Of a stretch of 64,000 nt of DNA, positions 58,386 to 59,704 are shown one piece after another. Within the stretch, counting starts at the first letter, position 1. Every line of letters begins with the position of its first letter. Made by a program: the position numbers and the translations under genes. The notes beneath the pieces were generated by a model that was given only the letters and a program-made list of their open reading frames with translations, had not been told where the DNA came from and did not search any database. Source of the DNA: an uncultured Candidatus Saccharibacteria bacterium (lineage in GTDB: Bacteria > Patescibacteriota > Minisyncoccia > Phycocordibacterales > CSBR16-119); assembly GCA_964426385.1 (NCBI GenBank), contig CAYRQF010000001.1, forward strand, positions 21,712-85,711, written 5' to 3'.

Positions 58386-58387
58386 AA

Positions 58388-58418
58388 AGATTTAAGATTT
58401 AGGAAGTAAGATTTAAGA
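58388..58418 (+). repeat. heptamer-array repeat GATTTAAGATTTAGGAAGTAAGATTTAAGAG (copy 2, left flank of the 4HB cassette)
   Basis: (GATTTAR)-like x4; 30/31 identical to reverse complement of 22620-22650; shares the 16-mer GATTTAAGATTTAGGA with reverse complement of 58784-58814. Confidence 0.7.
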
Positions 58419-58427
58419 GAAAACTAG

Positions 58428-58811
58428 ATGGATAAGAAGATATCAGACTTCAAAGATTTACTTGTCTGGCAAGAAGGACACAAACTAGTACTTTCTATCT
58501 ATAAAAATCTTAAAAACTTTCCTAAAGACGAGATCTATGGACTATCAAGTCAGATGAAGAGAGCTTCTGTTTCCGTAACTTCAAACATTGCTGAAGGTTT
58601 TGGCAGACAAGGTATGAAAGAGAAAATTCAATTCTATTATCTGGCACAAGGCTCTCTCATCGAACTAAAGAATCAAATTGAAGTCGCAAAAGATGTGGGG
58701 TTTATAGATGTTCGCAGTTATAATGAACTGCTTGTAAAAAGTGATCAGACGCACAAACTGCTCCAGGGACTTATAACTAAATCAAAATCTTTCTTAAATC
58801 CTAAATCTTAA
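58428..58811 (+). CDS. four-helix-bundle protein (23S rRNA-intervening-sequence protein family, Avd-like)
   Basis: LLVWQEGHKLVLSIYKNLKNFPKDEIYGLSSQMKRASVSVTSNIAEGFGR...YYLAQGSLIELKNQIEVA matches the PF05635/TIGR02436 signature (W...l...iY.....FP..E...L..Q..RAa.Si..NIAEG..R); inserted between dnaK and dnaJ. Confidence 0.75.
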   Translation: MDKKISDFKDLLVWQEGHKLVLSIYKNLKNFPKDEIYGLSSQMKRASVSVTSNIAEGFGRQGMKEKIQFYYLAQGSLIELKNQIEVAKDVGFIDVRSYNELLVKSDQTHKLLQGLITKSKSFLNPKS

Positions 58812-58814
58812 ATC
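58784..58814 (-). repeat. heptamer-array repeat (copy 3, right flank, inverted) overlapping the last codons of the 4HB gene
   Basis: Reverse complement GAGATTTAGGATTTAAGATTTAGGATTTAAG; inverted relative to 58388-58418. Confidence 0.65.
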
Positions 58815-58825
58815 CTAAATCTCTC

Positions 58826-59704
58826 ATGTCCAAAGACTATTACAAAATTCTCGAGGTTGAAAAAGGAGCTTCTAAAGAAGAGCTGAAGAAAGCTTTTCGC
58901 AAAAAAGCGCACGAGTATCACCCAGACAAACAGACTGGTAACGAAGCCAAGTTCAAAGAAGTGAACGAAGCTTACCAGGTTCTTTCTGATGACCAGAAAC
59001 GCGCACAGTATGACCGCTTCGGATCCAATGGTCCGCAGTTCGGCGGCCAAAATGGCCAGGGCTTCGGAGGGTTCGACTTTGGAGGATTCAATGTGAACTT
59101 CGATGGATTCGGGAACGGTCAGGAATTCGACCTAAATGACATTTTCTCGGCCTTCGGGGGTGGATTCGGTCAACGGGTCAGAAAAGGCCGAGACATCGTT
59201 CTAACGCTCAATTTGAGCTTCAAGGAGGCTATCCTTGGGGTATCGAAGACCATAAAAGTCCCAGCTAACAGTGCCATGAAGGACAAGGGCGACATCTCGG
59301 TCAAAATCCCAGCCGGTATCGAGAATGGTCAGATGGTGAAACTCGCTGGTTACGGCGAGCCTGTTCAGGACGGACAGGCGGGAGATATACTCCTGCGGAC
59401 ATACGTCGAGCCTCATGGAAGTCTACGCAAAGAGGGAATACATCTAGTTACAAATATCGTGGTCAAACTTACAGACGCGATACTTGGTGCGACTTATGAG
59501 GTGGAAGGTATCGAGGGTCCGATTAAAATAAAGATTCCAAAAGGCATCCAAACCGGCAAGATCCTCCGTATCAAGGGCGCCGGTGTTCCTGCAGGACGTT
59601 TCCAGCATGGTGACTTACTCGTAGTTATCGAAGTAGATATCCCTGACTCTCTTTCTCGTGAACAGAAACGTCTCATCGAGGATCTCCAAAAATCTGGCTT
59701 ATAA
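58826..59704 (+). CDS. dnaJ: DnaJ-family co-chaperone (type II, no CxxCxGxG zinc finger)
   Basis: J-domain with HPD (YHPDKQTG); G/F-rich region; C-terminal substrate-binding domains; no Cys repeats. Confidence 0.8.
   Translation: MSKDYYKILEVEKGASKEELKKAFRKKAHEYHPDKQTGNEAKFKEVNEAYQVLSDDQKRAQYDRFGSNGPQFGGQNGQGFGGFDFGGFNVNFDGFGNGQEFDLNDIFSAFGGGFGQRVRKGRDIVLTLNLSFKEAILGVSKTIKVPANSAMKDKGDISVKIPAGIENGQMVKLAGYGEPVQDGQAGDILLRTYVEPHGSLRKEGIHLVTNIVVKLTDAILGATYEVEGIEGPIKIKIPKGIQTGKILRIKGAGVPAGRFQHGDLLVVIEVDIPDSLSREQKRLIEDLQKSGL

Follow-up and report, generated by a model that had tools for sequence, protein, structure and literature searches.

A 23S rRNA intervening-sequence protein gene bracketed by inverted heptamer arrays between dnaK and dnaJ of a Candidatus Saccharibacteria bacterium

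The grpE-dnaK-dnaJ operon in a 64,000-nt stretch of an uncultured Candidatus Saccharibacteria genome (contig CAYRQF010000001.1; the whole stretch is called the window below) carries a further gene between dnaK and dnaJ, a 127-aa open reading frame (ORF) of the S23p family, whose members are known from intervening sequences (IVS) of 23S rRNA. The ORF is bracketed by two arrays of tandem heptamers in inverted orientation. Since this is the anatomy of an IVS placed in an operon, we consider it reasonably likely that the ORF and its two arrays are one IVS-type module, a promoterless S23p/PF05635 gene bracketed by inverted heptamers, that resides in an mRNA operon. Directly observed in this study are the recurrence of the architecture across the family, the co-variation of the two arms, the purifying selection on the protein and the variable occupancy of the slot.

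Knowledge of the 23S IVS elements and of their S23p ORFs goes back to about 1990, and their origin, spread and function are unexplained; PF05635 is a large family that is otherwise understood only through Avd, its branch in diversity-generating retroelements (DGRs). IVS elements with an S23p ORF are therefore a known kind of element. What appears new is the module in protein-coding operons, its abundance in Patescibacteria and a locus-specific inverted heptamer rule that holds in at least five phyla. In the literature searched, flanking heptamers were reported for the Coxiella IVS only, though the search was incomplete and an earlier description is possible. For IVS-type cassettes in mRNAs the literature search gave only the Coxiella IVS paper and a survey of rRNA insertions in the candidate phyla radiation (CPR). 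The module is not bound to rRNA, as many housekeeping operons of Patescibacteria contain it. Arms built of heptamers are an explicit sequence rule, and co-varying arms together with a conserved protein make the IVS problem more testable. In the operon studied here the module is a possible post-transcriptional break-point between dnaK and dnaJ.

The cassette at the dnaK-dnaJ site

The operon and the parts of the cassette are laid out in the window as follows.

55928-59704, + strand: host operon grpE-dnaK-cassette-dnaJ, presumed to be one transcription unit
55928-56491, + strand: grpE (Pfam assignment)
56502-58385, + strand: dnaK (Pfam assignment)
58388-58418, + strand: left arm, about 4.5 heptamers (AGATTTA AGATTTA GGAAGTA AGATTTA AGA); Tandem Repeats Finder (TRF) period 7, 4.6 copies, and inverted pairs
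58428-58811, + strand: cassette ORF, 127 aa, between dnaK and the dnaJ-type gene
58792-58822, + strand: right arm, (TCTTAAATCCTAAA) x 2.2, reverse complement of the left-arm heptamers; TRF periods 7 and 14, and inverted pairs
58826-59704, + strand: dnaJ-type gene, 292 aa (Pfam assignment)

A first-pass annotation, made from the sequence alone, had placed the ORF in the 23S rRNA IVS protein family, and a hidden Markov model search matched it to that family from end to end. The ORF aligned with PF05635 over profile positions 1-106 of 106 (E 6e-36, 123.3 bits against a cut-off of 33.8) and with TIGR02436 at E 2e-33 (114.9 bits, cut-off 24). It is a full-length member of the S23p or 23S rRNA IVS protein family, also annotated as "four helix bundle protein" (4HB). 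The AlphaFold (AF2) monomer model has a mean predicted local distance difference test score (pLDDT) of 94 and helices at residues 12-28, 39-58, 63-89 and 95-123. Its best solved match in Foldseek was 2GSC, with a template modelling (TM) score of 0.87-0.97 and a root-mean-square deviation of 0.6 A, followed by 2RLD (TM 0.73-0.88) and then by bAvd (4DWL/8UB7). The cassette protein is basic, with an isoelectric point of 9.5. The 2GSC, 2RLD and 4DWL entries each hold chains A-E, and a Xanthomonas protein of the family has been reported to be a homopentamer (PMC4990558, citing Lin et al. 2006). The cassette protein is probably a basic homopentameric ring like these solved relatives. It probably binds nucleic acid, and one guess is that its own heptamer arrays are among what it binds.

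Relatives of the protein number in the thousands; the nearest 120 are 62-94% identical to it, and the named ones come from Patescibacteria. Between the cassette ORF and its orthologs in two other genomes (L005 and L010; L numbers denote loci of other genomes throughout) the ratio of nonsynonymous to synonymous divergence (dN/dS) is 0.02-0.04. Among the window, L005 and L010 the cassette protein changes more slowly than DnaJ (91-94% vs 80-83% identity). The cassette protein is under strong purifying selection.

The spacer between dnaK and the ORF is made up almost wholly of a period-7 array. This left arm begins 3 nt past the dnaK stop codon and ends 10 nt ahead of the ORF ATG. The right arm encodes the C-terminus of the ORF (..FLNPKS*), has the stop codon (58809-58811) inside it and ends 3 nt 5' of the dnaJ ATG. 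The first-pass annotation had described both brackets and the repeat-encoded C-terminus. The two arrays are real and the left one lies where it had been placed, but the right one is at 58792-58822 rather than at 58784-58814. An exact 16-mer said to be common to the arrays, GATTTAAGATTTAGGA, was confirmed and occurs exactly three times in the window (58389 +, 58799 - and 22633 -), where 0.06 occurrences are expected from shuffles. Inverted pairs I1-I4 join the left arm to 58781-58822, and 58388-58429 is complementary to 58781-58822 with a 23-nt core at 91%. In the minimum free energy fold of 58370-58840 the paired arms close off the whole cassette; with the ORF swapped for a short loop the arms alone fold at -25.1 kcal/mol (z = -4.6, 0/200 shuffles as good). 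It had been considered that related genomes might carry the gene with no repeats. In L005 and L010 the gene was found with its repeats, and the 30-nt core of the left arm is identical at these orthologous loci despite a dS > 1 in the adjoining ORF. The right arm differs by one heptamer among the three cassettes.

A promoter scan found strong sigma-70-like sites (11/12 matches) only at 55707-55734 and 55771-55798, both 5' of grpE. The only weak + strand matches (9/12) near the cassette were at the dnaK 3' end (58228) and within the cassette ORF (58600), and no promoter-like site was found in the dnaK-ORF spacer. The scan of 55700-60000 gave zero terminator-like sites on the + strand, hence none between dnaK and dnaJ. 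Because of this arrangement of promoter-like and terminator-like sites, the simplest reading is that the cassette is most likely co-transcribed with grpE-dnaK-dnaJ by read-through. An Rfam search of the window returned two tRNAs only, no rRNA and no known RNA family at the cassette.

The claim that a gene has been added between normally adjacent dnaK and dnaJ holds, as no gene lies between the two in more distant relatives (L095/L096, L102). An orthologous cassette is present at the same site in L005 and L010, with DnaJ 80-83% identical among the three genomes and dS of 1.2-2.0 (saturated) between the cassette orthologs. Five relatives at 74-82% DnaJ identity (L092, L122-L125) have unrelated genes and no period-7 arrays in the dnaK-dnaJ spacer. 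One assembly, CAZHCS01, has no cassette at dnaK-dnaJ (L124) and carries a 69%-identical cassette with another heptamer elsewhere (L012). Since five equally close relatives hold unrelated genes, these comparisons indicate that the dnaK-dnaJ spacer is a hypervariable slot in this clade. A comparison of spacers had been proposed as a way to see an empty site; occupancy does vary among relatives, but no clean empty dnaK-dnaJ site was found among the close ones, only alternative occupants. The same comparisons indicate that the cassette is an acquired yet long-resident occupant of this slot and not a recent invasion, because orthologs share the site at dS 1.2-2.0, with dN/dS of 0.02-0.04 and an unchanged left arm. 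The earlier description of a cassette "invading" the chaperone operon overstates its recency.

At least seven different occupants of the dnaK-dnaJ spacer were seen besides the 4HB cassette. They comprise a YbaK/tRNA_edit gene and small ORFs of unknown identity that run in either direction, all without heptamer arrays, and were found at the following positions.

L092, 354-794: alternative spacer occupant
L093, 2831-3496: alternative spacer occupant
L094, 2790-3442: alternative spacer occupant
L122, 1916-3020: alternative spacer occupant
L123, 2630-2962: alternative spacer occupant
L124, 2686-2955: alternative spacer occupant
L125, 1749-2999: alternative spacer occupant

Bracketed cassettes in Patescibacteria and other phyla

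The flanks of 4HB genes were analysed in 80 loci from species-representative genomes plus orthologs; the search behind this set had given more than 530 hits. Complementarity between flanks was scored without gaps and compared with control windows of the same spacing in the same loci. RNAduplex on long flanks (82 x 105 nt) was dropped, as its median of -35.8 kcal/mol was not separated from the -30.3 kcal/mol of random same-spacing sequence. The ungapped score placed 78/84 distinct Patescibacteria cassettes above the 95th percentile of the controls. Across the 84 cassettes the ungapped stem has a median of 26 nt with 23 Watson-Crick matches, and the left arm has its 3' end at a median position of -1 relative to the ATG; 51 of them have a right arm that overlaps with the stop codon. 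Nearly all copies thus share one plan, a period-7 array that ends at or overlaps the ATG and an inverted array over or just past the stop codon. The median number of heptamers per arm is 4.3-4.4, and identity at a lag of 7 in the two flanks is 0.51/0.50 vs about 0.29 at other lags.

Period-7 arrays are themselves abundant in these loci (167 in 733 kb, vs 3-14 for periods 5, 6, 8 and 9). The first-pass annotation had tied heptamer arrays to inserted small genes, and this was true of part of them: 92 of the 167 adjoin a 4HB ORF, but 55 are solo. In the count of all 167 arrays, 77 lie off 4HB genes, and nine short-loop heptamer pairs were found in related loci.

The sequence of the heptamer is specific to the locus. 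Among 58-66 arms there are 31 different consensus units (GATTTAA, GAATTAG, AGGTATT, GTAGNNN, GTATCAA and GAATATA are examples), and two cassettes of one genome can have differing heptamers (L083/L087, L041, L045). Each cassette having its own heptamer, the arrays do not behave as conserved terminal inverted repeats (TIRs) of a single mobile mini-cassette. No covariance model was built because the arrays slip register between loci and their columns are unalignable; consensus heptamers were matched in its place and evaluated by permutation. Cognate arms agree at 5.91 of 7 positions vs 4.83 of 7 for non-cognate arms, and 0/5000 permutations reach the observed value. The arms co-vary locus by locus and keep their complementarity, which argues for selection on pairing rather than for recognition of fixed ends by a transposase.

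In 65/73 loci the cassette points the same way as the upstream gene, more often than the background rate of 0.76 would give (p = 0.006). Upstream genes in that orientation are separated from the cassette by a median of 37 nt and downstream genes by 21 nt, distances close to the length of an arm. There are 63 classes of neighbour pairs among about 75 cassettes, and the recurring ones are livH|livM, HlyD|ABC ATPase and FtsZ|TrxB. None of the 13 atypical-context Patescibacteria loci (0/13) is located in an rRNA gene.

Several side observations concern these operons. In two genomes the HlyD-type gene of an ABC exporter operon is bracketed by two 4HB cassettes with differing heptamers (L041 3502-5372 and L045 1717-3622), and the HlyD|ABC site holds a cassette in L055 and L085 too. 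Complementary heptamer arrays also bracket ordinary genes, such as a livH-type permease gene (L011 791-825 and 1714-1745) and ftsA in L116 (3963-3993 and about 5176-5210). Heptamer arrays may serve to punctuate operons in a wider sense, not just beside 4HB genes. In L071 the inverted arrays are very long, at 4369-4470 and 5428-5518 with about 14 units each and a complementarity score of 40; the roughly 960 nt between them exceed the length of the 4HB ORF.

Outside Patescibacteria, a tblastn search against plasmids found relatives chiefly in Cyanobacteria, plus Riemerella, Azospirillum and Gemmatirosa. Heptamer-flanked 4HB genes are present on plasmids of Nostoc, Aulosira, Trichormus, Calothrix and Geminocystis. 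Among 16 plasmid loci of Cyanobacteria, Bacteroidota and Alphaproteobacteria, 11 have inverted heptamer arrays, 1 has long direct arrays, 3 are one-sided and 1 has none; the inverted arrays include (TCAGGAG)n in Nostoc punctiforme, (TAGGGAG)n in N. edaphicum, (GGGAAAA)n in Geminocystis and (AAGGTTC)n in Riemerella. Complementary flanks were also found in 16/22 relatives on viral contigs. Inverted heptamer brackets therefore span at least five of the bacterial phyla sampled. The locus with direct arrays (L110, Pseudanabaena galeata plasmid pPg_01, about 1390-2000) has its 4HB gene between cas6 and cas4 of a CRISPR-Cas locus, with (AAAGCTA) about 15 times upstream and (AAAGCCA)n downstream.

The connection with 23S rRNA IVS elements that the first-pass annotation had drawn is upheld by Azospirillum lipoferum (L115) and by Coxiella. 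In A. lipoferum the family ORF lies within a 23S rRNA gene (Rfam LSU match) and is bracketed by inverted GAGGACG/GATGACA arrays; because the ORF is within the 23S rRNA gene, this copy is a classical 23S rRNA IVS. The Coxiella IVS has a 28-bp terminal stem that is cut by RNase III (Warrier et al. 2016, PMC4990558), and 3-4 tandem heptamers (GACAGAT), variable in copy number between strains, lie directly 5' of the S23p ATG (PMC4990558). In CPR bacteria the insertions in 16S and 23S rRNA genes include PF05635 ORFs (PMC11270868).

The cassette of the window shares with the ORF-bearing 23S IVS of Coxiella burnetii, Leptospira, Brucella and A. lipoferum an S23p/PF05635 ORF, a terminal stem of about 26-30 bp and tandem heptamers just 5' of the ATG. 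Like them it would be promoterless and carried in a host RNA. The differences are that the host RNA of the cassette is the grpE-dnaK-dnaJ operon whereas an IVS sits in helix 25 or 45 of 23S rRNA, that the cassette ORF is strongly purified whereas the Coxiella ORF is decaying and apparently untranslated, and that RNase III excision has been demonstrated for the 23S IVS and is only presumed for the cassette. The short tandemly repeated repetitive (STRR) sequences of Cyanobacteria, compared here by description, are likewise tandem heptamers in intergenic regions, but the arrays described here are inverted brackets of a gene family. The STRR heptamers were reportedly described by Mazel et al. in 1990 as dispersed repeats of unknown function.

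Proposed mechanism and competing explanations

If the cassette is an IVS-type module in an mRNA, read-through transcription would put it into the grpE-dnaK-dnaJ RNA, where the arms could pair into an interrupted stem of about 30 bp that encloses the ORF and would be long enough for RNase III. RNase III may then cut the stem as it does in rRNA IVS, which would yield separate dnaK, cassette and dnaJ RNAs. The stem would lie next to or over the cassette start region and over the dnaJ ribosome-binding region (the ATG is 3 nt past the arm), so that cleavage, or melting by ribosomes that terminate in the right arm, could gate translation of the cassette and of dnaJ. Alternatively or additionally, ribosomes terminating inside the right arm may unfold the stem, which would link translation of dnaJ to that of the cassette ORF. 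Binding of nucleic acid by the basic pentamer is speculation at this point, and the near agreement of the five subunits with the roughly 4-5 heptamers in each arm is no more than suggestive. The proposed steps of transcription, stem formation, cleavage and translational gating are drawn from the anatomy of the cassette and from published IVS biochemistry.

Several points weigh against this explanation. Co-transcription, the stem in vivo and cleavage by RNase III are all argued by analogy. A comparison that could tell selection at the RNA level from selection at the DNA level gave no clear difference: G:U-type mismatches in the sense strand number 92 vs 76 of the A:C type (p = 0.25), and the duplex energies are -30.3 kcal/mol for sense and -29.0 kcal/mol for antisense (p = 0.07). 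A search of the window with an RNase III signature regular expression gave no match, though 64 kb says little. The co-orientation with upstream genes is a real enrichment yet only modestly above background. The stem leaves the 7-nt periodicity and the solo arrays (55/167) unaccounted for, and it does not cover the Pseudanabaena arrays (L110), which are direct and not inverted. Lastly, the S23p protein of Coxiella is seemingly not made (PMC4990558), unlike the strongly selected cassette protein, so that the Coxiella IVS and the cassette may be unlike in the respect that counts.

One alternative is that the arrays are the TIRs of a non-autonomous transposon that resembles a miniature inverted-repeat transposable element (MITE) and is moved in trans, the ORF being cargo or helper. 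MITEs and other TIR transposons are likewise small, have inverted repeats at their ends and occur in many contexts, and the 63 neighbour contexts among about 75 cassettes fit them. So do the differing occupancy of dnaK-dnaJ among close relatives, the assembly (CAZHCS01) that lacks the gene there (L124) and has the 69%-identical cassette elsewhere (L012), and the near-identical solo arm 36 kb away in the window; the outcome of the G:U asymmetry test is compatible with a role at the DNA level. Transposon ends are hard to reconcile, however, with arms whose sequence is unconserved (31 consensus units, differing even within one genome in L083/L087, L041 and L045). The arms are copy-specific tandem heptamer arrays tied to the start and stop codons of a conserved and selected ORF, which sets them apart from MITEs. 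No adjacent transposase was found, and the flanks that were read show no evident target-site duplication. Vertical inheritance of the orthologous cassettes has been stable over dS > 1, with a protein slower than DnaJ (91-94% vs 80-83% identity). We regard a transposon of this kind as unlikely. A second alternative is that the cassette is an ordinary resident gene with a cis-regulatory hairpin, in which the arms only regulate how the 4HB mRNA is translated or how stable it is, for instance by hiding the start codon; element-like behaviour would be absent, and the varied contexts would reflect old paralogy and changes of gene order. This agrees with the long vertical persistence, the strong purifying selection, the position of the arms at the ATG and the stop codon, and the purine-rich composition of the left arms (0.61 vs 0.45 in right arms), as for a sequence like a Shine-Dalgarno (SD) site paired to one like an anti-SD site. 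But the module also occurs within 23S rRNA genes (PMC4990558; PMC11270868), which is impossible for an ordinary operon gene, its presence at dnaK-dnaJ is patchy among equidistant relatives, and ORF-less hairpins and solo arrays of the same kind of repeat exist. A resident gene is accordingly judged improbable, to about the same degree as the transposon.

The similarity to Avd raises a further explanation, that the cassette protein is an Avd homolog left over from a DGR that has lost its reverse transcriptase (RT). Avd is a nucleic-acid- and RT-binding scaffold. Avd (bAvd 4DWL; DGR ribonucleoprotein 8UB7) and the cassette protein are both basic four-helix bundles whose solved relatives are pentamers, and the fold comes with a distant similarity to bAvd (PHROG 3206, E 7e-12). 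Sequence identity is only about 10%, the score with the Avd model NF033474 is 26.1 bits against a cut-off of 80, and the closest solved relatives, 2GSC and 2RLD, are not from DGRs. Nor was an RT, a template repeat or a variable repeat found. Apart from paralogous P-loop coding segments and two short leader repeats, direct repeats of 30 nt or longer are absent from the window, and with them anything like a template/variable repeat pair. A Pfam scan of 11 ORFs of 120 aa or more in 44-64 kb, which cover almost every unidentified non-overlapping gene of that section, gave no RT (those scanned encode AlaRS, S4, RpoA, CysRS, CorA, a PaaX-like protein and others). Nor is there one among the annotated cassette neighbours in other genomes, where an RVT_3 hit in L041 is an RNase H-type protein. 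The first-pass annotation had judged that this was not an obvious DGR, and the present results agree; a DGR remnant is very unlikely. Even less credible is the view that an AT-rich genome produced the arrays by chance as low-complexity sequence and that the repeat-encoded C-terminus is a coincidence. Period-7 arrays are indeed frequent even off 4HB genes (77/167, with 55 solo), but the 16-mer is present three times vs 0.06 expected, period 7 is over-represented more than 10-fold vs periods 5, 6, 8 and 9, complementarity of cognate arms greatly exceeds that of shuffled, same-strand and same-spacing controls, and the left arm has stayed conserved at dS > 1. These controls of the 16-mer, period, complementarity and conservation refute chance arrays.

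A wider proposal builds on the IVS-type module. The pentameric PF05635 protein and the locus-specific inverted heptamer arrays might be one unrecognised and widespread system that unites 23S IVSs, STRR-type repeats, hundreds of Patescibacteria operon cassettes, solo arrays and ORF-less hairpins. A ring of five subunits would read the arrays with about one heptamer per subunit, and this reading could direct RNA processing, or copying of the module to new transcribed sites in an RNA-level or retro-type mobility. The protein may also act in trans on solo arrays, for example on the array next to ftsA (30/31 match). We give this proposal a small chance of being correct.

Other heptamer elements and neighbouring genes in the window

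Two further heptamer elements were found in the window.

22619-22649, - strand: solo copy of the left arm, 30/31 identical, 3 nt past the ftsA stop codon
43069-43136, + strand: ORF-less inverted heptamer hairpin of AGCTTAT units (TRF and pairing; -26.4 kcal/mol, z = -2.5)

The solo array had been noticed earlier as a third copy next to another insertion. It was found with the 30/31 identity claimed and beside an antisense ORF, but alone it is no mark of the insertion of this cassette, because these genomes have many solo arrays and ORF-less hairpins. Its orientation relative to ftsA is that of the left arm relative to dnaK, and no partner arm was found within 1.5 kb. In a relative with 98% FtsA identity (L120) the ftsA array is 30/30 identical to the dnaK left arm, one at 85% (L116) has another heptamer array at the site, and one at 82% (L118) has a 120-nt spacer with no array. 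A second cassette of which the ftsA array would be the remnant is unsupported, as L116, L118 and L120 never show a 4HB gene there.

The antisense ORF that adjoins the solo array encodes 136 aa (22155-22565, between ftsA and ftsZ), has no Pfam match and has its own GC-rich terminator hairpin at about 22583-22612. The 120-nt ftsA-ftsZ spacer of L118 carries a ftsZ promoter-like sequence, and L116 and L120 hold other antisense inserts.

The hairpin at 43069-43136 lies between a RNase_T-type exonuclease gene (42533-43078) and mnmA (43181-44221) and looks like a cassette-less version of the bracket with another heptamer sequence. Short ORF-less 23S IVS elements (the Salmonella type, and the non-intron insertions of CPR rRNA genes; PMC11270868) are extended stem-loops without an ORF, as this hairpin is. 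The hairpin and the nine short-loop pairs look like the counterpart of such elements in mRNA spacers, with the difference that they are heptamer-built and located in intergenic spacers of operons.

PADLOC found no defence-system match, its sole hit being a spurious Csm4 (E 0.005). The DnaJ-type protein, of only 292 aa, has a J domain, a Gly/Phe-rich stretch and the C-terminal domain, with no match to a zinc-finger domain. Its score does not reach the cut-off of the TIGR02349 DnaJ model, and it is similar to CbpA-type co-chaperones.

A leader is common to two loci, 35633-35750 and 55813-55930, and consists of CCCGTTAGAGAT and, about 90 nt on, its complement ATCTCTAACGGG abutting the ATG. One copy is 5' of grpE and the other is 5' of the gene that starts at 35750 (MQIIKEGLNHHAYLIEG...). 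The shared leader, which is not CIRCE, may be a common start-codon-sequestering structure or an operator.

Divergent from grpE, on the - strand at 55195-55713, is a gene for a winged-helix protein with a PaaX_M domain (Cas2-like fold). Homologs of it adjoin the grpE-dnaK-dnaJ operon in the relatives L122-L124, upstream and/or downstream, and the protein is a candidate regulator of that operon.

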